DNA of 62,981 nucleotides, counting the filler, from Stramenopiles sp. TOSAG23-3 (Eukaryota), in NCBI GenBank assembly GCA_900128585.1. It is 8 parts of 8 records of this genome, joined end to end, with 100 filler letters (N's around TTAATTAATTAA, not from the genome) between each part and the next. Parts side by side here need not be neighbours in the genome. Positions count along the whole stretch, not along the records: positions 11,562 to 22,998 come from LT642739.1; 7 more parts are not named here. One strand, written 5' to 3'. Shown in pieces: positions 4,908-62,485 of the stretch; the stretch's first letter is position 1; each line of letters begins with the position of its first letter. The translations under genes and the position numbers were made by a program. A model generated the notes under the pieces. That model was not told where the DNA came from and searched no databases. It worked only from the letters and a program-made list of their open reading frames with translations.

Positions 4908-5010
4908 AAAACATACTATATATTTTGTTTTTTAAAGTGAGAGTCTTAAAACATACTATATAATTTGTTTTTTTTAATTTCTTAAAACATACTATATAAT
5001 TTGTTTTTTT
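4908..5010. repeat. Three spaced copies of AAAACATACTATATA(A/T)TTTGTTTTTT
   Basis: Direct repeats near 4908, 4948 and 4984. Confidence 0.8.
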
Positions 5011-5018
5011 AATTATGA

Positions 5019-5373
5019 TACTTAAAGCAGCCAATTTTTAGTTTTAAATATAAATAACATAACATTTAACGTATTTTTATTTTATCACACAACATTTTTT
5101 TATCTCTGAAACCATTAGGATTAGGGTATGAGGAAGCTAAATTTAATTACTTAAATAACAGCCAATTTTCTTGTTTTTATGATAATATGCTTCGTAAGAT
5201 CAAAAGAGAAAAACATTTATATTTACTTAAATAACAGCCAATTTTCTTGTTTTTTATTCATATCATGTATCATATGATATCATATTTAATGAATGTCTAA
5301 ATTTAGAGTTCAGTTCGCAGTATATTAATTTTAATTACATACTTAAAAATATAACAGACAATTTTCTTGTTTT
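5019..5373 (-). repeat. Cluster of four copies of the 3'-flank element (strand = strand reading AAAACAAGAAAATTGGCTG)
   Basis: TTACTTAAATAACAGCCAATTTTCTTGTTTT or variants at 5019-5045, 5127-5178, 5223-5255 and 5291-5373. Confidence 0.9.
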
Positions 5374-5380
5374 ATATATT

Positions 5381-7908: not shown

Positions 7909-8604
7909 ATGGCAACCGTGTCCGAGATTTACAACACAAAATTTATCCCTGTTCGCGATGAACGTGGGATAACTGAAAACCATGTAAACTTCGTCAAAGG
8001 GAAAGAAGGAGCGGACCGAGTTTTATGTGTAGTTCCGCAGCTGATGGCGCAACACACCTATATTATTGAAGCCACCAAAAGGGATGGGAACCCAGCTGAG
8101 CTAGAAAAGTTTGACTTTTCCGATTGTGAATTCCATGGGTTCACTGTCGACCATGAAGAGGTAAAAGTAAAGCCTATTCCAATGTCCAGTCGACAGCTAA
8201 AATTTACCGTTACCTTTCTCAGCAGAGGTGAGTACATTTTGAAAGACTCAAAGGAAAACATTGTGATCATGAATGTCGACTCTGCTTCAGCAAAGCATGG
8301 GGTTGACGCGCACCTTTACTACGGCCAATACAACAACAAAATTAGCAAAACGAAGAAAGTTAGCAAGTACATACAAAAAATTGTTTGTGTGTGGGGAAAA
8401 TTTAAGCCCACCTCTATCCCTGAAAGAGAAGCAAACCATTTCCCAAAATACTATGAGCCCAATGACTGCAATCCATGGCCATGGCATATGAATCATAAAG
8501 TTACTAAGATTCCAAAGTTTATCGATGATAAAAAGAAAAAGCAGGAGAAAGAACAGAAGAAAGAAGAAGAAAAGAAGCAAACCGCCGACGACGACGACTT
8601 TTGA
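7909..8604 (+). CDS. Hypothetical protein, 231 aa, with charged C-terminal tail
   Basis: ATG-initiated ORF with coding-like composition between AT-rich spacers; no family recognised. Confidence 0.75.
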   Translation: MATVSEIYNTKFIPVRDERGITENHVNFVKGKEGADRVLCVVPQLMAQHTYIIEATKRDGNPAELEKFDFSDCEFHGFTVDHEEVKVKPIPMSSRQLKFTVTFLSRGEYILKDSKENIVIMNVDSASAKHGVDAHLYYGQYNNKISKTKKVSKYIQKIVCVWGKFKPTSIPEREANHFPKYYEPNDCNPWPWHMNHKVTKIPKFIDDKKKKQEKEQKKEEEKKQTADDDDF

Positions 8605-8785
8605 GCGTTTCTGCAGAGAGTGTTTTTTTAAAGTACCTTTTACCTAATTTAAGTTTATTTAAAAATATTTAAATTTATAAAAAGTAAAATGTTTCCATTT
8701 TTGATTGCAACGAAAATGTTTTCATTTGGCTTTGATCTTTTGAATCGTTTGTTACGCCGCGAGTATTTTGCCTTCTCCCTACATT

Positions 8786-11035
8786 CTACGACCGAAACCT
8801 CACCCCCTTTCGTTGGAGCAAATAGGTCTTAATCTGTTGGATAGTGACGCCTCGGCCTTTTTGCAAGATTCGGGCAGGCTTCACCCGGTTGCTGTGGTAC
8901 GTCACCATTATCGCAGATATGCTGAGTAAAAGAAGCCCCGATATTGCTAAAAAATCTCTACGATGCTTTCTTCCAGCAATTCCGAAACAATAGCAGCATG
9001 CTGAAACGAAAGCAATTACTACCCAAACAATGGAGTGCCAATATTCCCGCAAACCCAGATCATTTTTACAGTCCAAACAGTCCGTGTTGCTTCCGACCAT
9101 GCCGATATCAGACGCATTTTCACGTCCAGCATTTAGATAACTGTCGGAGTACTGAATCGAGTGAGAGGGCGGCTCGTGCAAAAGCCTCTGGTGCTCATTA
9201 TCCTCGTCCCCATCGCCCAAAGCCCCGGCCTTTTCTCTCGCCTTGACAACGTTTATCAACGTGCGTGTCCCGAAAGTGTCGAACAAGCAGTTCGGCCCAC
9301 GAAACGCTCGGTCGGACGCGGGGGGTGGGATATACTTCCCGGTAATTGGGTCCACTGCAGCCGCCCCTTTCGAATGGTTATGCAGCCCTTCAACAATTTT
9401 AGAATGGACGGCGTCTGTAATTGGATAAAACGCAGAGATAATGCACCACGAAATTATAGAGCAGCATGCAGGGACCAAGATGACCATCACTTTCAGGGCG
9501 AAGATAACCCCGTCGGCTTGCTCCACCGTACGGCCCAGGCCTGCACGATACCCAAACGACGCCAAAATTGCCATGCTCACAGCGCTGCTCGGAATATGAA
9601 GCCAGCGAGGGATCATCTCCATGTAACACACGAATTGCGCTTCTCTGCGCAAACCGATGTGAAGCTCGTCATAATCTATACAATCCGCCCTGATGGGCCG
9701 GTGCAAATAATGGACGCCGCCACCGGTCAAACCGACCCAGGCATGGCACAGGGCAAAAAGCCGCTCGTCTCCCTTGCCACAGAAACAGAAAATAATTACG
9801 TACGCTGGCAACCCTAAGACCCAGCCTGCGAGCCACGTAAACCTCTTGTCAACCCGGGCAAGAAATCCAGCCATGCTTGCGTTGGCCATCGCGCTCTTTC
9901 TAAAATTTGGATGCTCGACCCACTCAGGGGGGAGCGTGAAATAATCAACCAACCGGAGGTCGCGCTGGTTCCGACGCTTGATCTCTGCACGCGCGCAAGC
10001 ACGAGTGCTCTCGCAACTCACCCACATCCAAAATGGAGTTGCGCACAGCGCACAAAGCAAGCCGACAATCAGGATGATGGAGACCCACATTTCATATGAT
10101 TCCGGCTGGAGCACGTACTGCACGTAAAACGGTAGCAACCCTTCAGAGAACATGCCGGCCAGGGCGCTGACGGAATGGCCCGTCAGCAGCACCATGAAAG
10201 GACCGTTCGAAATGCAGTTTCGCAGTCCTGCAACGAACGGCATGGAAGGCCTGTTCTTATAAGACGGCTGCTCCCATAACTTCCACGGCTGTCTCGATGA
10301 AGCTTCGGCCCGCTCATTCTCGTCTTCTCGGTAATCAGTAAAGTACGCCAAGATCCAGAACGAAACGATCGTTGAGATCCCGCAAAAAAAAGCAAACGAT
10401 CCGAAGGCGGAAAAATGGTCCCCATGGTACTTTGCAACCAAGATTGCGGGCGCGGCGGCCCCTAAAATCCTCCCAGCGGCTGAAAAAACTGCCCTCCAAG
10501 CAAAAACGCTCGTGCGAGTGGCACAATCTTGCGTGACTTCAGCCCCAAGCGCCATCCACGGGATCCCGAGAGGGAACAACCCATGAGCAAGGGCGCAGAC
10601 CACGTACGTGCTAACAATGGTGCTCATGCTGGAACGGTGCGGTGGCAAGTACAGGCAGATGACCGCAATGGCCTTTATCGGGGCCCATAAAATATAGTAC
10701 ATTCTCCTTCTGCCTTTGAAGAGCCCATTTTTCACGGCAAAAGTATCCATCAGCCATCCCCAAAAGGGGAACAGGATTGTTTCTATTGCCCGCACAGACG
10801 CGTGCAGCATGCCAAACCGCATGGGCTCTATCCGGACGTCGTCGACGTAGAACTTGGTTTGAAATGTATTGTCGAACGTTTCTACGGCACGGTACGCAAG
10901 GCCAGGGAGCGCGTATATCGTCTTTGCAAATAGCGAAACGTTGTTCAAACGATTAAAGTCAGCCTGCTCACTCTCTGGTGCATCAGCAGCCCTTGTAGCC
11001 CCACCCCCTTCCCCACCACCGCCGTGAGAGCTCAT
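8786..11035 (-). CDS. MFS transporter, glycoside-pentoside-hexuronide (MelB/MFSD2-like) family
   Basis: Many TM helices; GWLMD..GRRR, PWMALGAEVT..RTSVFAWR and ADCIDYDELHIGLRREAQF motifs; first ATG at 11035. Confidence 0.85.
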   Translation of the reverse strand: MSSHGGGGEGGGATRAADAPESEQADFNRLNNVSLFAKTIYALPGLAYRAVETFDNTFQTKFYVDDVRIEPMRFGMLHASVRAIETILFPFWGWLMDTFAVKNGLFKGRRRMYYILWAPIKAIAVICLYLPPHRSSMSTIVSTYVVCALAHGLFPLGIPWMALGAEVTQDCATRTSVFAWRAVFSAAGRILGAAAPAILVAKYHGDHFSAFGSFAFFCGISTIVSFWILAYFTDYREDENERAEASSRQPWKLWEQPSYKNRPSMPFVAGLRNCISNGPFMVLLTGHSVSALAGMFSEGLLPFYVQYVLQPESYEMWVSIILIVGLLCALCATPFWMWVSCESTRACARAEIKRRNQRDLRLVDYFTLPPEWVEHPNFRKSAMANASMAGFLARVDKRFTWLAGWVLGLPAYVIIFCFCGKGDERLFALCHAWVGLTGGGVHYLHRPIRADCIDYDELHIGLRREAQFVCYMEMIPRWLHIPSSAVSMAILASFGYRAGLGRTVEQADGVIFALKVMVILVPACCSIISWCIISAFYPITDAVHSKIVEGLHNHSKGAAAVDPITGKYIPPPASDRAFRGPNCLFDTFGTRTLINVVKAREKAGALGDGDEDNEHQRLLHEPPSHSIQYSDSYLNAGRENASDIGMVGSNTDCLDCKNDLGLREYWHSIVWVVIAFVSACCYCFGIAGRKHRRDFLAISGLLLLSISAIMVTYHSNRVKPARILQKGRGVTIQQIKTYLLQRKGVRFRS

Positions 11036-11334
11036 GAGAACGACGGGAGCTCCGCTCTCCCCGGTGAACTTCAACCTACAAACACTGTTCGCGGAAGAAC
11101 GCCCACGGAGGATTGGTGTACAACAATGTCTAAATCTCTCTCCCTTTCCTCGCACTCTTGTAAATTTTCTTTGTACTCAAATCACATTGTTCCTTGTTTT
11201 AAACGTTATTCAAATACCTGTATAATTTTGAAACTCACTAGTGGGAATGGCATATATAAAAAACAATAATAAAAATGATGATGATGTGGCTTTTTTTTTT
11301 TTTAATAAATAATAATAATAATTTTAATAATTAT

Positions 11335-11399
11335 TCTTTCTTTCTTTCTTCTTTCTTCTTCTTGCTTTCTTTCTTTCTTTCATTCTTTCTTTCTTTCTC

Positions 11400-11459
<60 letters not shown>

Positions 11460-11461
11460 TC
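11335..11461. repeat. (TTTC)n microsatellite running into the contig end
   Basis: Seen directly. Confidence 0.95.
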
Positions 11462-11561
11462 NNNNNNNNNNNNNNNNNNNNNNNNNNNNNNNNNNNNNNN
11501 NNNNNTTAATTAATTAANNNNNNNNNNNNNNNNNNNNNNNNNNNNNNNNNNNNNNNNNNNN
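11462..11561. other. Artificial contig linker N44-TTAATTAATTAA-N44
   Basis: Identical 100-nt six-frame-stop spacer, repeated seven times in the window. Confidence 0.98.
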
Positions 11562-14500: not shown

Positions 14501-15251
14501 GAAGATTTTGTACCCTGACGACAATGCGACGGAAAGAAACCGGCGCGCAAGGGAGTACTGGCATACGATGACCCAAGAAGAAAAGCAGGTGTACATAGAC
14601 CGTGCGGCGCTGACGGGGGCCCCCCTCGCTCGGGAGAGGAAACACAAAGAGAACTCTGCCCAGCAGGAAGCGTACTACGAAGTTGTTCGTGTCAATATCG
14701 AACGGTTCAAAGAAATGCACCCAGAGAAGAAGGGCTCGGAATGGAAATCGATGGCACGAGCAGAGTGGCATAAAATGCCGGATGCCCAGAAAAAGCCATA
14801 CATTGATGCAGCCATAAAGAAGGGGTTTAAGCATTCGGCGTGGTATGCCAAAATACAGAAACGAAAAGCGAGTAGTAAATCGACGCCAAAGAAAACCAAG
14901 AAGACAAAGCAAGCAGCGAAGAAGGCCGCGAAAATCCTTTCCAAGGCATCCGCACCAAGTGCAAAGCAGAGCAACGGTAATAGTGCGCTAAAGGCCGCGC
15001 CAGCCGTGCCAACGATTTCGGATCGCCAACCATTGCAGACGCAAAAGGCAGTTCTGCCCCCGCCCAGTTTGTCCTCCAACGATGCGCTTTTGCAGACTCA
15101 CAAGGTAGTTGTCCCACCCCCTGCTTCGGCTGCAGCGCCATCGACCAACGTTGCACCTCAACAGAATGAAACCCCTCTCCCGGCAGCGGATGACATAGCA
15201 CAATTTGCACCACCAAAGGCAGCGTTCAAATACACTGGGATTTCGCCTTAG
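11562..15251 (+). CDS. DDT/WHIM-WSD ISWI-partner-like chromatin protein with PWWP and two HMG-box-like repeats, 5'-partial
   Basis: LNPVTWPEVLRRY (DDT-like), EKLTLLSFLVDELL (WHIM1), LGMDRAFNEYWFF and LHSRGIRESALL (WSD), VWARIPGYPWWPG, W..M...EKQVY / W..MPDAQKKPY. Confidence 0.85.
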   Translation, partial: EDSIEERRLSYLADVLNPVTWPEVLRRYVNFWLRYGEYERLQNKFEEFTQEALADAVTTMTDKTYFHLTEPEKLTLLSFLVDELLDTPTIVEHIQASKEKLRELRADKKEDDVEARREEADMRKRQRRREKGLDSSSSEDESSSSEEESSSEEDTENKVGDDAAEAGAPVDGDAAAAAAPPSAEAGAEGEEKKEAAAEESSSEESSTEEEESSSEEEESEEEDESEEDAEPPLYIEIEETIFNGDPNDRKAILAHRKSVEARKVAIKSTHLAWKKRQKVKAAQRRQKEMKAQRELMAEQQKEEERKMEVLKREQEWDLKEIKRHEAHGRAIAKPAAAVRAGGGALGMDRAFNEYWFFPEADTTRLYVLPGNPEDNGLGRGSSRVKSETHWGVYEFKEDIEALVKSLHSRGIRESALLKRLSDPVVYHTLTRRMRSREAEEIARQKAAAKKARAEKLIDREKLLAEKRAAEEARRQLLISQRTSSRRAAAHKAVSNMIGNRVFERPKAEKDEEEAAQGSSRKRDDTNFLSWANTTRSKYINSDPEYFSYGGSPPAEIPFQKASIENNAIGCMKEYMMTLVSCAESFDVVLPPVVESSSAPSEPEKSKAPAEDILVKHETEAQAGGPDAPVAQAGSGEVAPGETVPAADGVKHEAPTETTGPSSAPEDEWDRFRAHTQTIDSTEKAAKAIIRFEDCLFNHVKQTQSPFHRWKRQNKEGGEENSDGEMSIDGEAGDADDGGDGENSEFEWSDDEEYVVSAAAETTPWDTPGAREKWIQSVQDSKGRKNGSFYTAFFQLVEIVFGWVKSQQLEPKEHPTAVSPQGDTMKVPEGATPTNKIVWARIPGYPWWPGRECIPDLSAEPHHTKVLFFEDSSVCYVPNKFVKPWKDGDNADEYEELSEPVMVSDRVRFWNAVVFASNFSQRFPYAKQRVKRPLAKAKNGKAPKKAKLSKGPRPKDPNKKKAQTANQLAYFEALKDNYDKMKILYPDDNATERNRRAREYWHTMTQEEKQVYIDRAALTGAPLARERKHKENSAQQEAYYEVVRVNIERFKEMHPEKKGSEWKSMARAEWHKMPDAQKKPYIDAAIKKGFKHSAWYAKIQKRKASSKSTPKKTKKTKQAAKKAAKILSKASAPSAKQSNGNSALKAAPAVPTISDRQPLQTQKAVLPPPSLSSNDALLQTHKVVVPPPASAAAPSTNVAPQQNETPLPAADDIAQFAPPKAAFKYTGISP

Positions 15252-15276
15252 TTTTTATCACAAACAAATATTAATT

Positions 15277-15299
15277 AAAAAAAAAACAAGAAAATTGGC
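15277..15299 (+). repeat. Short 3'-flank element copy
   Basis: A10-CAAGAAAATTGGC about 26 nt after the stop at 15251. Confidence 0.85.
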
Positions 15300-15337
15300 A
15301 AATATTAATAAAATTCTTTAAAAATAAAACTGGTAGG

Positions 15338-15768
15338 CATCGACGCAAATACAAATACCCATGTTCGGATCATGTATGGAGCACATTAGAGAATGATAGT
15401 CACGACTAAGTGACAAAGAATATATGGATCAGTGAAATCACAGGAGCTGAGACAAGTTCGCAGTATATGAAGGAACGTAAACCTTTGATCGACAAAAGGG
15501 GCAGATTCACTTTCGTGGTATCATATGAAGAAGATAAATTTTAATAGTGACAAGGGTATATCGATTATGTTAGTAAAACCAAAAGAGCAAGGATAAGTTC
15601 GCAGCTCATGAAGGAATGTAAACCTAGAATGTCTAAATCTAGATTTCAGTTCGCAGTACATTTTAATTTTAATTTTACTTAAATAACAGCCAATTTTCTT
15701 GTTTAAATTTTAATAACTTAAAATAACAGCCAATTTTCTTGTTTAATAACAGCCAATTTTTTGTTTTT
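15338..15768 (-). mobile_element. Composite long copy of the 3'-flank element with three tandem fixed ends
   Basis: Aligns with 50945-51155 (reverse complement), 51930-52139 and 62164-62485; fixed ends at 15675-15704, 15716-15744 and 15745-15768. Confidence 0.75.
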
Positions 15769-15866: not shown

Positions 15867-16373
15867 TTAGCATGCGGAGTCAACTTTCCATATTTCCGTC
15901 TGCTCATCGTTCATTTCACCTCTGTGTTTAAAACCATTTTTAGCAAGAACGCGTTTAGAAGCGTTATTTTGTCTATCTACAAGAGCAAATACACGATCAC
16001 CCACATCTTGTATTTGGTTACGAGCAAATTGTAACGCTAGATTTACTGCTTTCGTTGCCCGCCCACATCCTCGGTATGTTTCTAAAATGCCAAAACCGAT
16101 TTCAAAACCTCCATACTTTGCATTCTTCCGTACAAGGCAACAGCCGACAGGAGTCTTCTCGTCCAGTACAGTGAACATCCAACATTGCTGCTGTTTGCAG
16201 TTCTCTTCGGACCGATTGCAAAATTCCGCGATTTTCTCTTCTGGCAAAACACTCCCTCCTGCATTTTCTTTTATAATTAAGGGGTCTCGAAAAAAAGAGG
16301 ACAAAAATTTAAAGTCTGCTTGTGTATGGAGACGAATATTGACGCAGTTCTCCACCATTTTCTTTCCCTGCAT
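15867..16373 (-). CDS. GNAT acetyltransferase, RimJ/RimL-like
   Basis: FEIGFGILETYRGCGRAT motif A and NNASKRVLAKNGF motif B. Confidence 0.88.
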   Translation of the reverse strand: MQGKKMVENCVNIRLHTQADFKFLSSFFRDPLIIKENAGGSVLPEEKIAEFCNRSEENCKQQQCWMFTVLDEKTPVGCCLVRKNAKYGGFEIGFGILETYRGCGRATKAVNLALQFARNQIQDVGDRVFALVDRQNNASKRVLAKNGFKHRGEMNDEQTEIWKVDSAC

Positions 16374-16944
16374 ATTTTTTCCAACTCTCTCCTAAAATTA
16401 ATTTATCAGCTAATGTTTTTGAGTCCTCAGCAAAAACAGCCATTAGTTTATCTAAGATTTTTTGTTTAATCTTTGTTAATTAAATAAAAAAATAAAAAAT
16501 AAATAATAATAATGAATGAATAATATCTTTTACGATCGATCTTCTTTGTGTGGTGGAATTTTTGGTGTAATTATTATATAATAGCTTATAGTCTATTATG
16601 TTATTTAATTGTATTATTAGTGTCTAAACTATTTATTGAATTTATTATTATTTTCATTCTTCTTTGCGCTGCCTCCTGCCTCCTGCCTCCTCTTCTACAA
16701 TATTAATAATATAATATAGATAATACCATAATATAAGAAATATAAAAAAAAAACGGTTGTTTTTTTTTTTTAGTTGTTGTGTTGTTGAATCGACAAAGAA
16801 CAGTTTCAACATATTTTGTTATTTTTATTATTATGCATCGATCAAAACGAATTTACCGCGCAGTAACACCCGTGATGCATTTCGGATTTTATATTTGAAC
16901 ACAAGATTTACGTAGATGGGGGAAACTGAAAGAAACTTCAAGAG

Positions 16945-17742
16945 ATGATACCGTTCGACGATTCCTCTCGCGGCGTGGACCTGAATCTAGAGAGGGTTGG
17001 CTTTCGGCTGCCACTTGCTACAAGTAAAGTTTGGGTTAGGAACCTAAGGGCTTCAAGTTGCTGCTTAAACCGGGCTGGGGACGAGGAAACTCAAATTCAT
17101 TTTCAAACATGTAAAAATGGGGTGCGGTTTGTTCAATTAGTGGAAGATTACATGTCCCAGGTTGGTATGGTCGTCGATCTCGTTGTCTTCTTGAACCCCC
17201 AACAAAAGTCGACCAGTGCCCTAGTCTCTTACGCAAACGGCGACGCGGCGGCACGGGCAATACGAAGCTTGAACGATACTTTTGTCAGCGGTAGACGTAT
17301 TCGCGTGATGAATTACACTGCTACTGCTGCATCTGAAAAGTGGAGAAATTTCACCAAAGTCGGCAAACGAGAGCGCCAGTGCACGAAACTGGCAAACAGA
17401 CTGTTTGGCTTTCAAGGCTGGTCCAGTGTCATCTTGAAGGTCAACGTAGTCACAATAGAATCCATTGCTGGCCTTTGGTGCGTAGAGGCAGAGACAGAAG
17501 TAGACATTGTCGTGAAGTGTGGGAACGGGGTACTATTGGAGGATGATATGGTGGTGAGACAGCTGGGGAAAGCTTCCTGCACACACGTGAGCAAAACAGA
17601 GGCCATATCGCACAGCAGAAAGGAGAGCAAAAGCATTGCTCTGGTGTGCGCTTTCGAACGAATCGTAGTGGCAACCACGTTTGGTCAGAATACGGGGAAG
17701 GTTGTGATTCCCATGGTAAGTGGCGGAGCCACACAAATTTAA
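16945..17742 (+). CDS. RDM1: RRM plus Rad52/Rad22-motif protein (RDM1-like)
   Basis: RRM (SALVSYANGDAAARAIRSLNDTFVSGRRIRV) followed by CTKLANRLFGFQGWSS, the Rad52 N-terminal signature. Confidence 0.75.
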   Translation: MIPFDDSSRGVDLNLERVGFRLPLATSKVWVRNLRASSCCLNRAGDEETQIHFQTCKNGVRFVQLVEDYMSQVGMVVDLVVFLNPQQKSTSALVSYANGDAAARAIRSLNDTFVSGRRIRVMNYTATAASEKWRNFTKVGKRERQCTKLANRLFGFQGWSSVILKVNVVTIESIAGLWCVEAETEVDIVVKCGNGVLLEDDMVVRQLGKASCTHVSKTEAISHSRKESKSIALVCAFERIVVATTFGQNTGKVVIPMVSGGATQI

Positions 17743-17814: not shown

Positions 17815-19245
17815 TTACAAAAAACTTCGTTTCTTTTCCATCGCAAAAAAGATGTCGCCACCAAACTTAAAGCCGGGGGGCACAAGCGGGGGCAGCGTCG
17901 CCAGTAAATTCTCCACGAATGTGAACCGTTTCGGCGTGGTTCGCGATATCGTCGTTTTCGCGACAGGCATTTCGTGGTATGCACACACGCGGTTCTCTTT
18001 TACCAATTTCAACAAAATTTTGCTTATGTTTTGAACAGCAAAATTCATTTTTGTCTTTGGTGTATCGACATACAATAGACGAGCAATTTGGATCGCCGTT
18101 TTCGGAAAGTGAAACTTTTCCATTGCCTCTACTAATTGGTTTTCTCGAGAATCTCGGTGCAGTATGTAGCGAGAAATGTAGCCAGCGCCGTCTTCAATAT
18201 ACGGGCCATGGCCCGGCATCAATCGCTTAGGGTTGCTTGCTAGCATTTTACGCAAACTTCCCATGTAATCGTACAAATCCATAAAAAACGTGGTACCGTA
18301 GCCCAATACCGTATCGCCGCTGAATAGGTCCGCATCTTCTAATAAAAACAGCGCCACGTGCCCTGGCGAATGGCCTGGCGTGTGCATCACTTGGAGCGAC
18401 GCCCCAACCGTGTTAAGTTCCATGCCATCGTGCAACTCGATAAATGGGAAGTCACCGTTCAAACATGCGTCCTGGAATCGCTTGGCACGTTTCATAAACC
18501 AATAGGTACGCTGGAGCTCTATTTTGCTACGCCCCAGGATATCCCAGCTCAAAAACTCGGCCGAATCTTCCCCCGGCCATTTGGGCATTTTCTTTTCTGC
18601 CAGTTTTAAAAATTCTTTGTCCGTCATGCCCCGCGTAAATTCTGGGCCTTGTTCCAAGAATGGAACAAGCCCTTGTGTCTCAATTACCTCCAGCATCGAT
18701 TGGTATTTAAACGCAATAGTAGTCATGGCAACAGGGACGTTTGGGCCAAATTCATCCTGCAACCGAGCGACGTTCCCATAGTGATCGGAGTGCATGTGAG
18801 TCACGACGATGAGCTCGATGCGTTTGCAGCCAACGGTCTGCATGCACTCTCGCAAGTTTGCAACAAACTCTTCTGTTCCGTAGCCTTCGTCGCCGGTGTC
18901 GATTAGGATTCGGCTGTCGCCTGTCCCTACCAAGTAACAATTTGTCCCGTTCAAAGTGAAATCGCTCGGGTTTTGCCCCAAGCATGAGGCTATTCGGGGC
19001 GAGATTATTTCAAACGCAGGCTGTGGAGGTGCTCTCTTTTTCGCTTCAAAACGTTTCATCCAGCGTGCTACAATGTTGCGCTTGGCGCCTTCGACGTAAA
19101 CGTCGTTAGCCGAGGAAGTCGCGCCAGATTTATTTGCCTGTCGCATCGCAGCACTCATTTCCCTCGTTAAAAACAAAGCACCCGGCGAACATACCTCCGG
19201 GGTTGACGAGCAACAGGGACACTTTGCTCCAAAAATAAGTTCCAT
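17815..19245 (-). CDS. LACTB2: Metallo-beta-lactamase fold endoribonuclease, LACTB2-like
   Basis: GQNPSDFTLNGTNCYLVG, LIDTG, THMHSDH, HTPGHSPGH, FSGDTVLG, PGHGP and a C-terminal winged-helix-like segment. Confidence 0.85.
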   Translation of the reverse strand: MELIFGAKCPCCSSTPEVCSPGALFLTREMSAAMRQANKSGATSSANDVYVEGAKRNIVARWMKRFEAKKRAPPQPAFEIISPRIASCLGQNPSDFTLNGTNCYLVGTGDSRILIDTGDEGYGTEEFVANLRECMQTVGCKRIELIVVTHMHSDHYGNVARLQDEFGPNVPVAMTTIAFKYQSMLEVIETQGLVPFLEQGPEFTRGMTDKEFLKLAEKKMPKWPGEDSAEFLSWDILGRSKIELQRTYWFMKRAKRFQDACLNGDFPFIELHDGMELNTVGASLQVMHTPGHSPGHVALFLLEDADLFSGDTVLGYGTTFFMDLYDYMGSLRKMLASNPKRLMPGHGPYIEDGAGYISRYILHRDSRENQLVEAMEKFHFPKTAIQIARLLYVDTPKTKMNFAVQNISKILLKLVKENRVCAYHEMPVAKTTISRTTPKRFTFVENLLATLPPLVPPGFKFGGDIFFAMEKKRSFL

Positions 19246-19422
19246 TGCCCAGTATTTTATCTATTGGGGAACGCTAATCTAGGAAATATGTAACCCACAC
19301 CTTTCAAGAACGTAAACAGTAACTAGATAAAATCGACATGAATGCCCGGCATCATCATCCAATTGGTTAATTTTCCAACTATTTATAATATATGGAATAC
19401 AGAATTGTTGGGAATATATATA

Positions 19423-19510
19423 GAAGAAGAAGAAGAAGAAGAAGAAGAAGAAGAAGAAGAAGAAGAAAAGAAAGAAGAAGAAGAAGAAGAAGAAGAAGAA
19501 GAAGAAGAGA
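19423..19510. repeat. (GAA)n microsatellite in a divergent spacer
   Basis: Seen directly. Confidence 0.95.
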
Positions 19511-20397
19511 AGATGATTTTTTTTTTTTATTGATGGATGATGAATATTAATATTTTTATTATATTGATGTTAAATGATGAATGATGATGATGGATTTTTT
19601 TTTTTTTTTTTAAATAATGGCTTCTTTTTTTAGTGAGAAAAAATACAAAAAATCAAATAATAATGTTTTAAGTTTATTTTAATGCTGTAATTATATTATA
19701 TTTAATATTTGCTGTGTCTATATACAAATTGTTACAAAATCGCCTTTCAGACAAAAACGCCTTGTTTTTATAAATCATCCAGAAACAAAAGAGCTTTTGT
19801 TCCGTTATTATTATTATATTTTAAATATATTATTATTCGGTTGCACTGCTATAATAATAATAGAGGAGCCTACGAGGACAGTTGGCTCTGCTCAGGAGAG
19901 GCAGCGCATTCTTCAGCAGCAGTTAGTCAGCAATAATTAGCAGCAAGCAGCAAGCAGCAGGACAATTTTTTTGGTTTAGAATTGTTGAACTACTTTGGTA
20001 GGTACAGCTATGGTAACGTAGGTAGTTTAAAGTAGTATTAATAGTACTCGTAGTGAGGAAGGGCGGATGGGGGTGTGTCAACTGTCAACCCAGGACGAGA
20101 ATAACGTCCATTGTATTCGGCGTATATCGAACAGGGCGGAGGATGGATGGGATGATGATGTACGATATTATGATGGTGGTGGATGGATGGGATGGTAAGA
20201 AAAAAAACGAACGTTCTTTCTTAACAAGGAAGACAACACAACATACACAACAAACCCACGAGCTTGCTATTATATTTGGACTACGAAAAGATGAACAGAC
20301 AAAGTACCGAGCGCTTTTCTTTCAATGTTCTGCAACGGAACAGCAACAAAGCGAGAAACACTGAAGCCACCTTTTTATCTCAATCGGTCGCATCACA

Positions 20398-22357: not shown

Positions 22358-22552
22358 CAGGAACGTAAACTGTTAATTCACAAAAGGAGCAGATCCACAT
22401 TCGCGGTATATGAAGACATCATGAGCGTAAAACGGGGAAGTGTCTATTAAAAAAACTGTAAATGAATTAAACAAGAAAATTGGCTGTTATTGAATTTAAA
22501 TAACTAAGAAAAAGTACTTAAAATAACAACAGGGCCAATTTTTTGTTTTTTT
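22358..22552. repeat. 3'-flank element pieces in a convergent spacer
   Basis: Internal fragment 22358-22417 (-), fixed end 22469-22491 (+), degenerate fixed end 22515-22552 (-). Confidence 0.85.
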
Positions 22553-22998: not shown

Positions 22999-23098
22999 NN
23001 NNNNNNNNNNNNNNNNNNNNNNNNNNNNNNNNNNNNNNNNNNTTAATTAATTAANNNNNNNNNNNNNNNNNNNNNNNNNNNNNNNNNNNNNNNNNNNN
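22999..23098. other. Artificial contig linker
   Basis: N44-TTAATTAATTAA-N44. Confidence 0.98.
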
Positions 23099-24973: not shown

Positions 24974-25159
24974 ACCAGCTTTATTTTGTTTTAATAATAT
25001 CAACTAGAGCGATTAAACCCTAATGAAAAAAAACACTGCGTTTGTAAAGCAAAACTAAATCAATTGCACTGATCTACAAGATCAACTTTATATATCCGAT
25101 GTGAAATGAATAACAAACGAAGAACTCCATAATTAATAAAAAAATAATACTGTATTATT

Positions 25160-25167
25160 ATTTTTTT

Positions 25168-25209
<42 letters not shown>

Positions 25210-25597
25210 CTTCTTCTTCTTTCTTCTTCTTTTTTTCTTTCTTCTTCTTCTTCTCCTCTTCTTCTTCCTTCTTCTTAATATAATATCAGACGACTATTAT
25301 CATAAGCACAGCAAGGTTATAATAAATATTATTATTAGTAAAAAAAAAAAGAAAGAAGAAGAAGAAATAAGCAGTCCTCAGCCTACTACAGTATAATAAT
25401 AATACAAACTGTAATTTATATATACACAGCATTATTAGGAGGAGGTGGGACGGAAGAAGAGAGAGAAAAAGTTGAAAGAAGAAGAAGAGAAGAAGAAGAA
25501 GAAGAAGAAGAAGAAGAAGAAGAAAGAAGAAGAAGAAGAAGAGAAGAAGAAAGAAAGAAGAAGAAGAAGAGGAAGAAAGAAGAAGAAGAAGGAGGAG
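25160..25597. repeat. poly(T)/(TTC)n and (GAA)n tracts in a divergent spacer
   Basis: Pyrimidine tract 25160-25276 and purine tract 25453-25597. Confidence 0.9.
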
Positions 25598-25783
25598 GCA
25601 CGACGACGAGGAGGACGTTTTTAAACTTTAATATGCTGTACAAGGAAACAGTAAAAGCGGTGAATGAAATTACCTGAACGAGCCCCCGATGTCCTTTTCA
25701 ACAATAACCATCAAACCCGGACAAAGATTTCGAAAGTTACGCAGTTCGTTTTACATGTGGTACATATATACAATCAGTACAGC

Positions 25784-28535: not shown

Positions 28536-28974
28536 CCTACACAAAAGCACCGCAGCGCAGCCCAATCGTTCACCCACCACACACAGAGCTATACCCCAGT
28601 TCCCCAAAAAACAATAAGAACCAAAGCTGTGATCACAATATATAACTTTACAGACTAAATGAAAGGGAAAACGAAAAGGATAAGTTATCATTTCGTAATT
28701 CACATTAATAGCTAGTCGTCTTTATTTCTTTATACATAAAATACAAGTCTATATTCTTTATATAGATATGAATATAAAAAATAATATTTTTTATTATTAA
28801 TTTTTTACTACTAATTTTTTTTTACACAGTAGTATTTATAGTCTACGATATAATTTAATAAAGAAGTGATCGCTCCTCGCTCCTCCTGCCTGCCCCGCCC
28901 GTGGGGAGGAGAAGAAGAGAAAGAAGAAGGAGAGGACGACAGAGGGGGACGGAGGAGGAAGGATCGAATTTGAT

Positions 28975-29240
28975 TTTTTCTTCTTTCTTCTCTTCTTCTT
29001 CTTCTTCTTCTTCTTCTTCTTCTTCTTCTATCTTCTTCTTTCTTCTTTCTTCTTCTATCTTCTTCTTTCTTCTTCTTCTTTCTTCTTCTTCTATCTTCTT
29101 CTTCATTCTTCTTCTTCTATCTTCTTCTTCTCTTCTTCTTCTTCTTCTTCTTCTTCTTCTTCTTCTTTCTTCTTCTTCTTCTTCTTTTAATTCTTCTTTT
29201 ATCTTCTTCTTTCTTCTTCTTCTTCTTCATTCTTCTTCTT
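28975..29240. repeat. (TTC)n compound microsatellite in a divergent spacer
   Basis: Seen directly. Confidence 0.95.
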
Positions 29241-29697
29241 TATATTATTATATAAATATTAATAATAGAAGATGTAAATATAATAATAATAATAATACTC
29301 TGACCTCTGACCTCGTTGTTTTATTTGAATTTTTTAATTAATTGTATAAAAATATCTAGTTTATATAAATACCATCCAATCGTGGAATAGTATGAAAACG
29401 GAATACTCAATCCACTCAAGCAACTCCTCCTCACATCATCACAGCTATTTATTAGAATATTATATAATGATGTACTACCAGCAGCAGCAGGAGCAGGGGC
29501 GGGGGGAGTTTTTTTTAATTGAAATTGAATAATTTGAATTTGAAGAAATTACAAAAAAATATACGATCTAATATATATTATGTAAAAGAAAAGGTTTTAA
29601 CAGAAATGTTCGAATAAGTTGACTGTTTTTAATTTAATTTAATTAATCTTTTTACGTTGAATCGAAACGTATCTCTGTTTTTTCGCATCCTTTTGCC

Positions 29698-34528: not shown

Positions 34529-34628
34529 NNNNNNNNNNNNNNNNNNNNNNNNNNNNNNNNNNNNNNNNNNNNTTAATTAATTAANNNNNNNNNNNNNNNN
34601 NNNNNNNNNNNNNNNNNNNNNNNNNNNN
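34529..34628. other. Artificial contig linker
   Basis: N44-TTAATTAATTAA-N44. Confidence 0.98.
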
Positions 34629-36032: not shown

Positions 36033-36100
36033 CGTATTAGTGCCATACAGTGTAAGTTTGCCATAAAATTATTTAACGAAAGTATATTAAATTAAGTTTT

Positions 36101-36125
36101 AAAAACAAGAAAATTGGCTGTTATT
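36101..36125 (+). repeat. 3'-flank element fixed end
   Basis: AAAAACAAGAAAATTGGCTGTTATT about 70 nt after the kinesin stop. Confidence 0.9.
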
Positions 36126-36392
36126 TTTATTATATTAAATCAGGGTTTTTCTTTCTAAAATAATAAAAAATGTGTGCAAAATACAAGCACTATATCTACT
36201 TTAGAATTACGGATTTAGGCAACCACAACACAAGTCTAGCCGATTGTTTCTAATTGTTAAGTAACATACTATATAATCATATTTTTCAATAAAATATTTG
36301 TGCTTTTTCAATAACAGCCAGAGTTGGTTTACAGCCCCATATTTTTTATACTTTTGTTTCATTGCTTTCATGCAGTTTCAAATTGTTTTACC

Positions 36393-39409: not shown

Positions 39410-39529
39410 AAAGCAAGAGATTGGCTTTAAAGATTTGCTGTTATTTAAGTAATTAAAATATTATCTCTCATATATGTACCGCGAAAATGAATCTGCTCCT
39501 TTTGTGCAATTAAAGGTTTATACGTTCCT
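39410..39529 (+). repeat. 3'-flank element copy of about 120 bp
   Basis: Starts 10 nt after the stop; GCTGTTATTTAAGTAATTAAAAT..ATGTACCGCGAAAATGAATCTGCTCCTTTT..AAAGGTTTATACGTTCCT. Confidence 0.88.
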
Positions 39530-40638: not shown

Positions 40639-41062
40639 AACGGTCGTGTGGTGGCTCGAACTTTTTTAGTTGCAGAAGAATTGCAGAAATATATGAATAC
40701 TTATGTTATTCAATAATACGCCGAAGTATGAAACCATTACTAATTTTGTTTCATATTTGACATACAACGATAATTCTACTTGGTTACTCCTTCTGTGATG
40801 ATTCTTGATTATGGTGGTTGGGAATTCATTCATCGTCTTCTTCTTTTTGTTGTTTTGTGTTGAGGAGAGTTTGATGATGATTGAGAGAGGAGATGATGAG
40901 ATGATGATGATTTTGATGTTGGATGATTCTTCTTGCTTCTTTTTTTCTTCTTCTATTTTATTATTTACTACCACCATGGTATTACAGGTATTATGCGTAG
41001 TATTAATAATACCGTAAAATATTATAGTCTATTTATTATTACAACATATCATAATATCATCA

Positions 41063-41312
41063 TCTTTTTCTCTTCTTCTTTTCTTCTCTTTTTTCTCTCT
41101 CTTTTTTCTTCTTCTTCTTTTTTTGTTTTTTCTTCTTCTTCTTTTTTTGTTTCTTCTCTTTCTTTTCTTTTTTTTTGTTTCTTCTCTTTCTCTTCTTCTT
41201 TTTTTTTGTTTCTTCTCTTTCTTTTTCTTTTTTTGTTTCTTCTCTTTCTCTTCTTCTTCTTTTTTTGTTTCTTTCTTCTTCTTCTTTTTTTGTTTCTTCT
41301 TCTTTTTTTGTT
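41063..41312. repeat. Polypyrimidine minisatellite, unit about T8GTTTCTTCTCTTTCTCTTCTTC
   Basis: Several degenerate units, each containing a T-run followed by GTTTCTT. Confidence 0.9.
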
Positions 41313-41717
41313 CCGTCGGTCGGGGGTGTGTTGGTGTGGAGATGTGGTCAGCGCGTCACATTCTTCTTCTTCACCACAACATTCAATCATCATCATTCAT
41401 CACACAATTAATTATAATAAAATTAAATATACAAATAGTGCTGAGTAACATATAATAATAAATGTAATAATAATTTTAATAATATTTTTATTAATAAAAA
41501 ATAATAAGAGTATTACTATGTAGTGAGAAGTACGAGGTAGTCGTCGTCCTTCTTCTGTATCTTAATAAGAGATCTTCTTTTCTTATAACCTATAGAACCG
41601 ACCGACCCTCTTTCAAATTCAAAGCAACCAACAACAACTGTCGTATTCCATATATGTACAATTTTTTGCAACGATATCTTTCTTGCATTTACAACACCTT
41701 CGTTTTTTCACAAAGAA

Positions 41718-46034: not shown

Positions 46035-46134
46035 NNNNNNNNNNNNNNNNNNNNNNNNNNNNNNNNNNNNNNNNNNNNTTAATTAATTAANNNNNNNNNN
46101 NNNNNNNNNNNNNNNNNNNNNNNNNNNNNNNNNN
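46035..46134. other. Artificial contig linker
   Basis: N44-TTAATTAATTAA-N44. Confidence 0.98.
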
Positions 46135-50521: not shown

Positions 50522-50588
50522 GTTCCAAGGCCAGGAAAGGGTGCCGATTTTAGAAATTACTTCGATTCATAGTTCATAAATTTTAATT

Positions 50589-52228
50589 AAAAACAAAATA
50601 ATGGCTCCTATTTAAGTAAATTAAAAACAAGAAAATTGGCTGTTACGACCCTCCCCCGACATCTCAACCCACAGATGACAATCCCTTGACTGATTTACAA
50701 GACAGACAACGATAACCTCTAAAACAATTAAGCCGCTGCTTGGAAAATCGTACAAGGATTGAGTCACCTATGAGTGAGATATCGGATGAGGAAGTTGANN
50801 NNNNNNNNNCGATTCGGATCGTGCATGGAGTCCATCTATCGATTAGTAAAACCACAAGAGCAAAGATAAGTTCGAAATTTAGAGTTCAGTTCGCAGTACA
50901 TTAATTTTAATTACTTAAATAACAGCCAATTTTCTTGTTTTTTTATTTAAGTAATTAAAATTTATCTTCTTCATGTACAGCGAATGTGAATCTGCTCCTT
51001 CTGTTCACATAAAAAGTTTATTTTACTTCATGTACTGCGAACTTATCTTTGCTCCTGTGATTTTACTAATCAATTTACTCTTGTCACTTAGTCTAGACTA
51101 TCATTCTCTGATATACTCCATGCATAACTCGAATGGATATTTAGATTTCCGACGATGACAAATGACCCGTAATCAACTTCCTCACCCGATGTCTCATCCA
51201 TAGATAAATCAGACACTGTGTGATATTTTCCAAGCAGCGGCGTAAATGTTTTGAAGGTGCTCATTTTCTGTCTTGTAAATCCGTCAAAGAATTTAAAAAC
51301 AAAAACTGAATGACAGTTTATCTAAATTTTAAGTAAATGTTTCAATTTGATGTTAAACCACCCTAAGGTTAATTAATCGAACTTTTTATTATTTAATACG
51401 AGGATTTGCGGTGATTGAACACTGAGGTTGTTTTTGCAGGATCAAAATTGGTTGGAAGAAGAAAAACGGAAGGTGCCGAGGGAATCGAGTACGCCCAGTT
51501 TAAAAGGTAACAGAAAGCATAAATATAAGCGTTATTTGAACTGAGATGCCGCGTTATTCAATACACTGATTCGGATCATGCATAGAGTACACATGAAAAT
51601 GATAGTGAAGACTGAGGGACAAGGGTATATTGATTACTAAAATCACAACAGTAGAGATCAGTTCGCAATACATTAATTTTAATTACTTAAATAACAGCCA
51701 CGAGCATTCCAGCAGCGATGATTTCGGTAGTGCCCTGACTATAATAGTGTCAGTTCAATCCTCAATACAATCCAGCAAGGAGCAATCCAGCATCGCCCCG
51801 ACCCTAGTAGTGCCACCCTCGGATGAAGACACAGAGATACAATCCTCAACACAATCATCAGAAGAAGGGAACCAGAGCATTGCCAGCAGGGCGAGACTCA
51901 ACAGGCACGCCAACGAACCACAACCTACCGATTCGGATATGCGTGCAGTACATCTGAGATTGATAGTCAACACAAAGTGACAAGGGTATATTGATTAGTA
52001 AAACCACAAGAGCAGAGATAAGTTCGCAGTACATGCAGGAACGTAAACCTCTAATGGATAAAAGGAGCAGATTCATTTTCGCGGTACATGAGAAAAGCTA
52101 AATCTAAATTACTTAAATAACAGCCAATTTTCTGTTTTTAATGTTTATATTTAGTAGTGGTTGATTAAGGGTTTAACACGGAAATTTTAAGAGTAAGGTA
52201 CTTAAATAACAGCCAATTTTCTTGTTTT
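50589..52228. mobile_element. Nest of 3'-flank element copies, including the longest ones
   Basis: Copies at 50589-50645 (+, two starts), 50675-50944 (-), 50945-51290 (+), 51568-51699 (-), 51930-52139 (-) and 52199-52228 (-). Confidence 0.8.
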
Positions 52229-52312
52229 CAATTACAACCAGTTAGCCAATCTGTTTTCTGTGCTTGCACCAGTGTCCTTTAAGCCATTGTAACCCTTTTT
52301 CAAATACCGTCT

Positions 52313-57496: not shown

Positions 57497-57596
57497 NNNN
57501 NNNNNNNNNNNNNNNNNNNNNNNNNNNNNNNNNNNNNNNNTTAATTAATTAANNNNNNNNNNNNNNNNNNNNNNNNNNNNNNNNNNNNNNNNNNNN
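57497..57596. other. Artificial contig linker
   Basis: N44-TTAATTAATTAA-N44. Confidence 0.98.
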
Positions 57597-57723
57597 AGAA
57601 GAAAAAGAAGAAAGAAGAAAGAAGAAAGAAGAAGAAGAAGAAGAAGAAGGAGAAGAAGAAGAAGAAGAAGAAGAAAGAAGAAAGAAGAAGAAGAAGAAGA
57701 AGAAGGAGAAGGAGAAGAAGAAG
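57597..57723. repeat. (GAA)n microsatellite at contig start
   Basis: Seen directly. Confidence 0.95.
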
Positions 57724-58214
57724 ACGTAGATAGACGACTAATATAATAAATACTAACTGATAATAATAAAAAATAAAAAAAAAATAATAATAAAAATTAT
57801 TATTATTATTATTATATCGATCATCTCATAAAAAAATTACAAAAATTCCAATCTGTGTATTACTAGTAAAATTCGTTTTCTCAGCGGTTATTCTCTCTCA
57901 TCACAAGTTCGATTAAATTGTAACTAAACACGAACATATTCGGAGTTTAACATGTGCGTATACTGCTCTTAACCCGTCTATTACGCTCAAGCAACAGTTT
58001 TTGCTTTTCTTGGGATACTAGGCGGAGTAGCCGCAGAAAGTTTTCAACAGTTCGCTGATCCGCACCAAGGAAGGCGGGTTTTGCTTTTTTAGCAACAGGT
58101 TGGAGAGAGTTCTCCGCGGCTTGGCTTCATAACTACATTCACGGTTAAACACCGAGCAGTACGAAGCTTTTATATTCCTAACAGAGTAAAAAATTTGGGA
58201 TCAACGGGGACGAT

Positions 58215-59325: not shown

Positions 59326-59425
59326 NNNNNNNNNNNNNNNNNNNNNNNNNNNNNNNNNNNNNNNNNNNNTTAATTAATTAANNNNNNNNNNNNNNNNNNN
59401 NNNNNNNNNNNNNNNNNNNNNNNNN
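59326..59425. other. Artificial contig linker
   Basis: N44-TTAATTAATTAA-N44. Confidence 0.98.
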
Positions 59426-60736: not shown

Positions 60737-60756
60737 AAACCAAGAAAATTGGCTGT
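60737..60756 (+). repeat. 3'-flank element fixed end
   Basis: AAACCAAGAAAATTGGCTGT about 37 nt after the stop. Confidence 0.85.
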
Positions 60757-61153
60757 CGTTTTTATTATATAGTGCGTCAGTCGTCTATATACTTATAAGT
60801 ATAAATAGCTTTTTTTAGATAAAATTATTATATCTCCTTTAATAAGGCAATAGCATAGAGTTAAAACACGGTTTTTATGCAGGGCCGGCAGGATCCAAAA
60901 TAATAAATACTCTATACTACTACACTAACGAACTAAGCGCCAAGGTTCTGCTGACTAACTCTTTCGTTTTGAATGAAACAACAAGAAGAAAGAAAGAAAA
61001 GTTAGAACATATTATAATAATATCAAGTTAGAAAAGGAAGAAGAATGAAAATAGTAGATCCTGCCTCGATGATTCGCACGTATTAATCGGTTTGAGAACG
61101 TTTTGTTGAGCCTTACTTAGGATTGCACATAAAAAAAGGTCAAGATAGTATCA

Positions 61154-61253
61154 NNNNNNNNNNNNNNNNNNNNNNNNNNNNNNNNNNNNNNNNNNNNTTA
61201 ATTAATTAANNNNNNNNNNNNNNNNNNNNNNNNNNNNNNNNNNNNNNNNNNNN
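61154..61253. other. Artificial contig linker
   Basis: N44-TTAATTAATTAA-N44. Confidence 0.98.
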
Positions 61254-62075: not shown

Positions 62076-62163
62076 AGACAGGCGCCGGGTTGAGAGTATA
62101 AGTGCATTCTTCTCTTCTTGGAAATGATTTTAAAAATATTAAGTTATCTTAATTACTTATCTT

Positions 62164-62485
62164 AAAACAAGAAAATTGGCTGTTATTTATAATAAGTAAA
62201 ATTAAATTTAGCGCTTCCTATTAAGTAATTAAAATTAATGTACTGCGATCTTGAAAACAAAAAACTGGGGGCTGCTATTTTAAAGTACAAAGTAATTAAA
62301 ATGTATCGTCTTTTAACCGCGAATATGAATCTGCTCCTTGAGCACATGAAAAGTTTTACTTTCCTTCGTATCTCTGCTCCAAAAAACTGCGGTTTTACTA
62401 ACTTTACTATATATTGTCACTTAGTCTAGACTATCATTCTCTGATGAACTCCAATCATAACCCGAATGGATATTTGGATTTCCGA
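62164..62485 (+). mobile_element. Composite long copy of the 3'-flank element
   Basis: Fixed end at 62164, restart near 62253, then TGTCACTTAGTCTAGACTATCATTCTCTGAT..CGAATGGATATTT matching 51082-51152. Confidence 0.85.

Follow-up and report, generated by a model that had tools for sequence, protein, structure and literature searches.

The stretch of DNA analysed here (the window; 62,981 bases from the assembly of Stramenopiles sp. TOSAG23-3) consists of eight contigs joined by N44-TTAATTAATTAA-N44 spacers, so that distances and neighbourhoods across the spacers are meaningless. Its genes were of an ordinary eukaryotic kind (21 open reading frames [ORFs] examined). On one of the contigs a repeat array, at 15338-15768, was found between two convergent genes, which encode a WSD/PWWP/HMG protein and a GNAT acetyltransferase; the + strand of the array is antisense to the GNAT gene. 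An earlier note on this DNA had attributed the array, and similar repeats at loci that are spread over five different contigs, to reiterative copying of a U-tailed RNA by a reverse transcriptase of the telomerase or Penelope/Athena type. The results described below indicate instead that the array very probably arose from a single retroposon family, whose 5'-truncated copies were inserted by target-primed reverse transcription, piled up and came to be nested in one another.

Structure of the array at 15338-15768

The motif had been described as starting three times in a row, for about 24, 40 and 155 nt, before jumping back into the element near 15545. The same layout was recovered as four same-sense pieces of 24, 40, 159 and 208 nt (Table 1). 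The second to fourth pieces along the + strand each ended in ...AATAACAGCCAATTTTCTTGTTT or a close variant, and two of the three tail motifs within 15685-15767 were identical 20-mers. When the four pieces were aligned to an intact copy, 51920-52145, as the reference, 15338-15545 corresponded to reference positions 1-190 and 15705-15744 to positions 181-218. The overlap amounted to exactly ten reference positions, the word AAATTTTAAT, which flanks the intervening 159-nt piece as a duplication; the left copy of this duplication was flagged independently in a flank-repeat scan as a 12-nt flanking repeat, TAAATTTTAATA. The 159-nt piece scored 138 against the subfamily-1 copy 50810-50945, compared to only 54 for 15338-15545. 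Since the overlap is ten positions long and the insert belongs to another subfamily, the jump back and one of the restarts are the result of a later, independent insertion: an older copy of about 240 nt (208 + 40 nt) was split by a 159-nt copy that has its own target-site duplication. The 24-nt copy behind the older tail may reflect either renewed use of the same nick with a duplication of at most three T's or a template jump.

Other clusters had been listed as similar, and several copies were indeed found at each (approximately 5007-5376, 50586-50645, 52113-52232 and 62162-62484). The 20-mer AACAGCCAATTTTCTTGTTT, with up to three mismatches, had 15 matches in the window, compared to 0.02 expected, and none of 100 shuffles reached 15. 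Nesting was also seen at 50620-50943, where an inverted 26-nt tail (50620-50645) precedes a plus-strand copy of about 300 nt that begins at CGACCC (50646-50943); together they form one insert, and the older minus-strand copy that received it (50589-50619 plus 50955-51283) is interrupted in its tail. At the junctions 51699|51700 and 62217|62218, a copy without its last 14-21 nt is joined directly to the 5' end of another copy.

Ends, duplications and insertion sites of the family

An exact-motif scan of metagenome contigs identified at least 133 related loci (given L numbers below) and, together with the window, at least 153 distinct exact-motif copies; the family-wide statistics rest on copies among the matches listed. 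The 3' end was fixed across copies, whereas truncation at the 5' end was arbitrary and left between about 20 and about 340 nt, with many stubs of 20-60 nt. Similarity upstream of the motif, measured as contiguous alignment because neighbouring copies contaminate a simpler measure, extended to a maximum of 315 nt (top five, 278-315 nt) and fell continuously to stubs of about 20 nt; nowhere did collinear upstream similarity between loci exceed about 340 nt. The pattern of one fixed end and variable truncation, to which the earlier note had drawn attention, held on this much larger sample of copies. Three subfamilies were distinguished, and only the last 40 nt or so, ...AATTACTTAAATAACAGCCAATTTTCTTGTTTT, were common to all of them. 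Long copies carried an open frame, with a stop codon in the tail sense about 90-110 nt before the tail. As the earlier note had also proposed, the putative RNA template, whose sense is that of the + strand at the focal locus, would end in ...CUUGUUUU and not in poly(A).

Independent copies at L037 (approximately 4186) and at position 50646 of the window started at the same base (CGACCCTCCCCC...). The bases between the duplication and this start were AAT in one of the two and the inverted 26-nt tail in the other, and the copies at L020 and L012 read through the start point. The shared start may represent a preferred RNA 5' end or break point.

Target-site duplications, which had been reported as not visible, were present around individual copies (AAATTTTAAT at the 159-nt piece and TATTTAAGTAA at 50620-50943) and were enriched throughout the family. 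The sequence just after the tail was compared with the 400 nt upstream in 142 testable copies, using shuffled flank pairing as the control. Exact flank repeats of at least 10 nt were found in 43 of the 142 copies (control, 4.3%), of at least 11 nt in 37 (control, 1.9%) and of at least 12 nt in 21 (control, 1.0%); 40 copies had repeats of at least 10 nt that contained no element words, for example TTAACTTCTTACAA, TAATTCTTGTTC and AAAGTTACTTCG. The duplications were 5-15 nt long (median 10-11). The distance to the upstream repeat matched the BLAST estimate of copy length closely at L037 (315 and 315, respectively), L012 (131 and 127), L113 (150 and 153), L026 (275 and 278) and window position 15685 (138 and 138), and less closely at L017 (307 and 286). 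Duplications of variable length combined with 5' truncation constitute the footprint of target-primed insertion and not that of cut-and-paste or rolling-circle DNA transposons.

The pre-insertion consensus at the tail junction, derived from 39 sites, was TTTTT|AA. T was found at positions -5 to -1 in 23, 22, 24, 25 and 32 sites, respectively (background T 0.34), and A at +1 in 36 sites and at +2 in 26. In a small sample of 38 sites, T was strongest at -5 to -1 (22-31 sites) and mildly raised at -12 to -7 (17-23 sites). No pattern was evident by eye, without tabulation, at the opposite end of the duplication in the 40 sites listed. Because the junction is sequence-specific on the T-tail side only, the first nick and the priming are placed on that side, and the tail is taken to be the 3' end of the RNA. 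The T run at the 3' junction was about 4-5 whether the site offered none, 1-3 or more than 5 T's, which is what one would expect if a U4-5 tail paired with an A-ended primer, but equally so if the nick fell exactly at T|A and no pairing took place. Seven of 40 sites offered no T at all; pairing is thus not obligatory. That the U tail would pair with A-ended nicks is, from these sequences, plausible but unproven.

Tandem copies at L006, L097, L019 and L008 were separated by their own duplications, each beginning right after the previous tail, which indicates that insertion restored a nick site at the tail junction and that this site served a second time. Greater likeness of tandem copies within loci, which had been put forward as the sign of local slippage, was not observed: of 100 neighbours lying within 300 nt of an exact copy, 17 were exact too, compared to 15 of 63 copies at a distance of at least 600 nt. 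Tandem neighbours therefore differ in age, and this comparison argues against same-event arrays as the rule. Consecutive tails within 600 nt of each other (197 tails) formed 29 tandem, 18 head-to-head and 10 tail-to-tail pairs, counts that are near the 2:1:1 expected from independent insertions. A single flank repeat of at least 10 nt enclosed the whole pair in 2 of 17 head-to-head pairs, compared to 0.6% of controls; these were the window pair within TATTTAAGTAA and the L043 pair within AGTAAGGGTA. The two halves of the L043 pair differ in divergence, which weakens a single-event reading there. The enclosed pairs and the junctions 51699|51700 and 62217|62218 could have arisen by twin priming or template switching in single events.

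Table 1. Features of the window and members of the orphan coding family at the related loci
Feature	Position	Strand	Remarks
Older copy, 5' part	15338-15545	+	208 nt; subfamily 2; ends at AAATTTTAAT, split there by the nested insertion
Left copy of target-site duplication	15536-15545	+	10 nt, AAATTTTAAT; flanks the 159-nt piece
Nested 5'-truncated copy	15546-15704	+	159 nt; subfamily 1; complete tail
Older copy, 3' remainder (tail)	15705-15744	+	40 nt; first 10 nt (15705-15714) are the right copy of AAATTTTAAT
Tail-only copy	15745-15768	+	24 nt, AATAACAGCCAATTTTTTGTTTTT; abuts the older tail; reference positions 197-220
Inverted partial tail	15284-15303	-	3 mismatches; 34 nt upstream of the older copy
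WSD/PWWP/HMG protein ORF	ends 15251	+	upstream of the focal array
GNAT acetyltransferase gene	15870-16391	-	other side of the focal array
Four short same-sense copies	5007-5376	+	each followed by its own spacer; diverged, near 5030, ~5117-5179, ~5216-5258, ~5292-5376
Internal fragment	22358-22416		near the head-to-head pair
Two very short head-to-head copies	22466-22545	both	minus 22469-22488, plus near 22534
Solitary short copy	36099-36149	-	
Internal fragment without tail	39430-39529	-	83% identity over 100 nt
Diverged tail of minus-strand copy	50589-50619	-	body (50955-51283) split off by the later insert
Insert within 11-nt duplication	50620-50943	+	TATTTAAGTAA at 50609-50619 and 50944-50954
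Gap of 11 N	50799-50809		within the plus-strand copy 50646-50943
Body of minus-strand copy	50955-51283	-	followed by a short diverged tail-like piece, 51284-51330
Copy without the last ~14 nt	51560-51699	+	stops at ...AATAACAGCC; next copy adjoins directly
Long copy	51700-52143	+	5' 230 nt GC-richer and coding-like; same region adjoins the element at other loci
Short tail copy	52185-52232	+	
Tail-only copy	60738-60757	-	2 mismatches
Three abutting copies	62162-62484	-	62162-62217, complete tail; 62218-62250, without the last ~21 nt; 62251-62484, long, diverged tail
Orphan family member	L021 7661-9265	+	
Orphan family member	L026 5091-5930	+	
Orphan family member	L054 157-1173	-	
Orphan family member	L077 1127-2566	+	
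Orphan family member	window 51700-51929		
Spacers	11462-11561, 22999-23098, 34529-34628, 46035-46134, 57497-57596, 59326-59425, 61154-61253		joints between contigs
Long (GAA)n/(CTT)n and T-rich microsatellites	11308-11461, 19413-19512, 25157-25600, 28965-29250, 41050-41320, 57597-57740		several right at contig ends

Upstream coding sequence and RNA evidence

Extension of the longest copies had been suggested as a route to a master encoding reverse transcriptase; an orphan multi-copy protein-coding family was reached instead, into which these copies continue upstream (Table 1). Its members share a conserved ...SLSYLAARQRWADWW... stretch, a ...ILIPINVKSTHWY... stretch with sub-threshold similarity to Ulp1 proteases, and an acidic, serine-rich C-terminus with VVISSDDD- and SEISDEEVDY-type motifs; some have a 535-aa ORF. 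The ORF family gave no Pfam match at E≤0.01, and at E≤10 weak Ulp1-protease matches were obtained for two of five fragments (E = 0.044 and 0.16). No PDB sequence matched the orphan ORF. The 535-aa ORF had 11 close homologues, which carry neither names nor domains, and the AlphaFold model of the orphan ORF was unusable (mean predicted local distance difference test score, 36.8). The orphan gene family may have supplied the RNA, may be a passenger, or may belong to a larger element.

Part of the stretch was present in 20 of 24 listed public runs, four of which were examined as contigs. Summed contig depth over 15624-15751 was approximately 8,000-9,700 in the metagenome run X1 and 139-2,191 in X5, with flanks at approximately 5-7; this depth is no measure of copy number, since contigs of other organisms are summed too. 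In the RNA run X15 depth was approximately 8.6 over the upstream gene, up to 530 over the element sequence, and 0 over the GNAT gene. Because the upstream gene is covered and GNAT is not, plain carry-over of DNA is unlikely; parts of the stretch without RNA-run cover were not taken as evidence. A contig from the polyA library X20 (15196-15394) extended from the upstream gene across its stop codon into the element, and the loose ends of contigs ran on into other flanks, with no stop at the tail. Element copies appear to occur inside longer transcripts. After ...AATTTTAATTACTT at 15662, six DNA-run contigs and two RNA-run contigs (X1, X15) continued as an A run where about 21 nt would normally complete the tail, which suggests an element variant or a polyadenylated form that ends before AACAGCC.

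No run contig bridged 15483-15721, the joints in that interval having at most 30 nt per side and coming from other repeat copies. Among the metagenome loci there was no orthologue of the focal locus and few pairs were orthologous to each other; only L046, a contig of 1,412 nt, matched the window (99.86% identity to 52192-53603). The start of L046 inside a short tail copy is a further sign that assemblies break at the element. The long microsatellites of the window (Table 1) are also likely causes of assembly breaks.

Interpretation and alternative explanations

In the mechanism that we favour, a family RNA ending in ...AAUAACAGCCAAUUUUCUUGUUUU (sense on the + strand at the focal locus) would be reverse transcribed at nicks in T-rich/A-rich DNA with the consensus TTTTT|AA, and synthesis would usually abort after 20-340 nt. 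Sites of this kind are present in the AT-rich tail of the element and in the junction created by it, so that later copies would land inside or right behind earlier ones and arrays with tandem, nested or inverted copies would result. The earlier proposal had included target-primed reverse transcription of a U-ended RNA, and this part is supported by the fixed 3' end, the 5' truncation, the variable duplications and the specificity of the junction on the T-tail side.

Several results weigh against this interpretation. Flank repeats of at least 10 nt were absent from 99 of the 142 copies, as is expected for short or decayed duplications, an expectation that is no proof. The 24-nt copy at 15745 and the junctions 51699|51700 and 62217|62218 are left unaccounted for by simple nesting. 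Neither the 21 window ORFs nor the 48 longest of the 82 locus ORFs that reach 520 aa (E≤1e-12; 20 of the 48 matched no family) yielded a reverse transcriptase or endonuclease gene, and a reverse transcriptase motif pair, applied as a regular expression in what is a weak test, gave no match. Four tails that were folded had no stable RNA structure of the sort known from stringent-type tails of long interspersed elements (LINEs), being no better than shuffles (z = +1.4, -0.25, +1.0 and +1.2). The run contigs gave no sign of a discrete transcript with its end at the tail, but contigs cannot show RNA ends; and no pair of filled and empty alleles was found among the metagenome loci or the run contigs, the contigs being unfit for the recognition of empty sites.

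The single event envisaged in the earlier note, with repeated rounds of copying and release of a U-tailed RNA in a telomerase- or Athena-like manner that yield restarts of 24, 40 and 159 nt, would account for three pieces that abut without spacers and share the same fixed end, for the lack of a resolvable duplication at the 24-nt copy, and for the direct joining of shortened copies to the 5' ends of others at 51699|51700 and 62217|62218. It finds no support at the focal locus itself, where a 10-nt duplication surrounds the 159-nt piece, this piece and the copy that it splits are of different subfamilies, and the 40-nt piece represents the tail of the split copy. Duplications lie between the copies of the four tandem arrays elsewhere, the divergence from the consensus is often unequal between tandem neighbours, and complementarity to a U tail is lacking from the cDNA ends at the restart points (...TT-3'), so that realignment by pairing is unavailable. 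Such re-copying was judged quite improbable. The involvement of a Penelope-like enzyme, for example of the Chlamys/Naiad type, with some arrays as single-event 'pseudo-LTR' (pseudo-long terminal repeat) or inverted 5'-truncated structures, was considered unlikely. The sections of PMC8557442 drawn on here describe, for Penelope-like elements, high 5' truncation, partial tandems, an inverted 5'-truncated copy adjoining the 5' end, non-autonomous derivatives with shared 3' ends, a bias towards AT microsatellites, and protist clades without hammerhead motifs. With these sections and those of PMC11167929 as the basis, the present family is alike in truncation, head-to-tail tandems, an inverted copy on the 5' side and shared 3' ends; its enclosed head-to-head pairs, in excess of the controls, and its odd junctions could by analogy correspond to the single-event structures typical of Penelope-like elements. 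Sequential insertions, or twin priming by a LINE enzyme, are alternative readings of the two enclosed pairs. No hammerhead motif (searched with Rfam), telomeric repeat or reverse transcriptase that would link the family to Penelope/Athena elements was found, and no reverse transcriptase/GIY-YIG gene was found in the two ORF sets searched, although the hammerhead is lacking from some clades anyway. The orientation counts fit independent insertions, the halves of the L043 pair are unequally diverged, and the tandem appearance of the focal array is explained by nesting with duplication. A small but appreciable chance is left to a broader variant, in which an enzyme, Penelope-like or otherwise non-L1, would start on U-ended RNA at A-ended nicks in either strand, part of the arrays would stem from single events, and the mobilised RNA would be the 3' end of the orphan gene. 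Candidate single-event products would then be the insert 50620-50943, the junctions 51699|51700 and 62217|62218, and the 24-nt copy at 15745.

Explanations other than retroposition fared worse. A DNA transposon or miniature inverted-repeat transposable element with the terminal inverted repeats AAAAACAAGAAAATTGGCTGTTA ... TAACAGCCAATTTTCTTGTTTTT was at first favoured because of the perfect 23-nt inverted pair at 50620-50644 and 50921-50945, to which looser pairs at 15284/15748 and 22469/22534 could be added. It was dropped when this locus proved to be a pile-up: the left arm at 50620 and the plus-strand copy lie inside one 11-nt duplication, TATTTAAGTAA, and the pair splits an older minus-strand copy. 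Most copies, moreover, have a single tail, duplications vary from 5 to 15 nt, and non-tail ends fall at arbitrary positions, which makes this explanation scarcely credible. Local replication slippage or unequal exchange, duplicating the tail in place, would suit the two identical 20-mers at 15685-15767; the motif is, however, dispersed over five window contigs and at least 133 foreign loci with unrelated flanks, the focal pieces differ in subfamily and in private changes, and neighbours are no more alike than distant copies. We regard slippage as very improbable, and we think equally little of the idea that selection has kept the motif behind genes as a host signal for termination or 3'-end formation. 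In the ORF map at least five clusters do lie between convergent gene ends (5.0-5.4, 15.3-15.8, 39.4-39.5, 50.6-52.2 and 62.2-62.5 kb), and the polyA-library contig runs into the element. Against a host signal, the motif occurs in either orientation relative to the nearest gene, its copies have target-site duplications and variable truncation, and many genes lack it, including the convergent pair 16930-17739 / 17818-19260. Two further element classes were rejected. Helitrons produce no target duplication and have 5'-TC and 3'-CTRR ends with a subterminal hairpin; the present copies have duplications and their ends read ...CTTGTTTT. For a short interspersed element (SINE), an RNA polymerase III head derived from tRNA, 7SL or 5S was sought with Rfam and not found in the window, or in two loci searched at E≤10, and the long copies carry an ORF that continues upstream. 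No Rfam family reached the gathering threshold in the window, and at E≤10 only chance-level matches were obtained (two loci).

The retroposon family is closest in behaviour to the RTE-related T-tailed retroposons. Nishiyama and Ohshima (2018; PMC6007223), in the portions relevant here, deal with Au-like SINEs and their RTE-clade LINE partners, which have T-ended, microsatellite-like 3' tails, (GGUUUU)n being cited. The short element and its partner LINE have a 3' region in common, duplications have a tendency to begin with T close to a run of T's, and the repeated nucleotide of the tail is proposed to pair with the cleaved DNA strand or to guide the cut. Since pairing has already been proposed there, the idea is not new. 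The present family resembles those elements in its T-ended tail, its shared 3' region and the T near the duplication. In the same portions of that paper, however, the T peak lies about 10 nt upstream and the 3' hairpin is conserved, whereas here the T stretch abuts the duplication (-5 to -1) and the four tails folded had no hairpin; here, too, there is no RNA polymerase III head, long copies carry an ORF, and no RTE partner was present among the ORFs examined.

With LINE copies of the 'stringent' tail-recognition type, as outlined in the pertinent part of PMC3747384, the family has in common the fixed 3' end, the 5' truncation, the variable duplications, an AT-rich nick site that resembles the L1-type TT|AA class, and some 40 nt of conserved tail that otherwise different subfamilies possess alike. 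It differs in that the tail is U-rich, not poly(A) or a simple repeat, and most copies are stubs of 20-60 nt. The Zepp LINE of Chlorella and Coccomyxa, from what the excerpted text of PMC3446292 relates, is similar in forming clusters of nested elements rather than being evenly spread, but it forms one large cluster per chromosome, in contrast to the many small intergenic clusters seen here, which lie mostly between convergent genes.

Read in this way, as target-primed insertion with self-nesting, the family opens no new mechanism and belongs among the ordinary genomic parasites. A retroposon whose tail ends in U and whose target is TTTTT|AA is thereby added to the examples from protists, and it illustrates that self-nesting can mimic both inverted terminal repeats and apparent restarts. 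In this uncultured marine protist, a large share of the repeated intergenic DNA is explained by the family, as is the fact that short-read assemblies break at the element.

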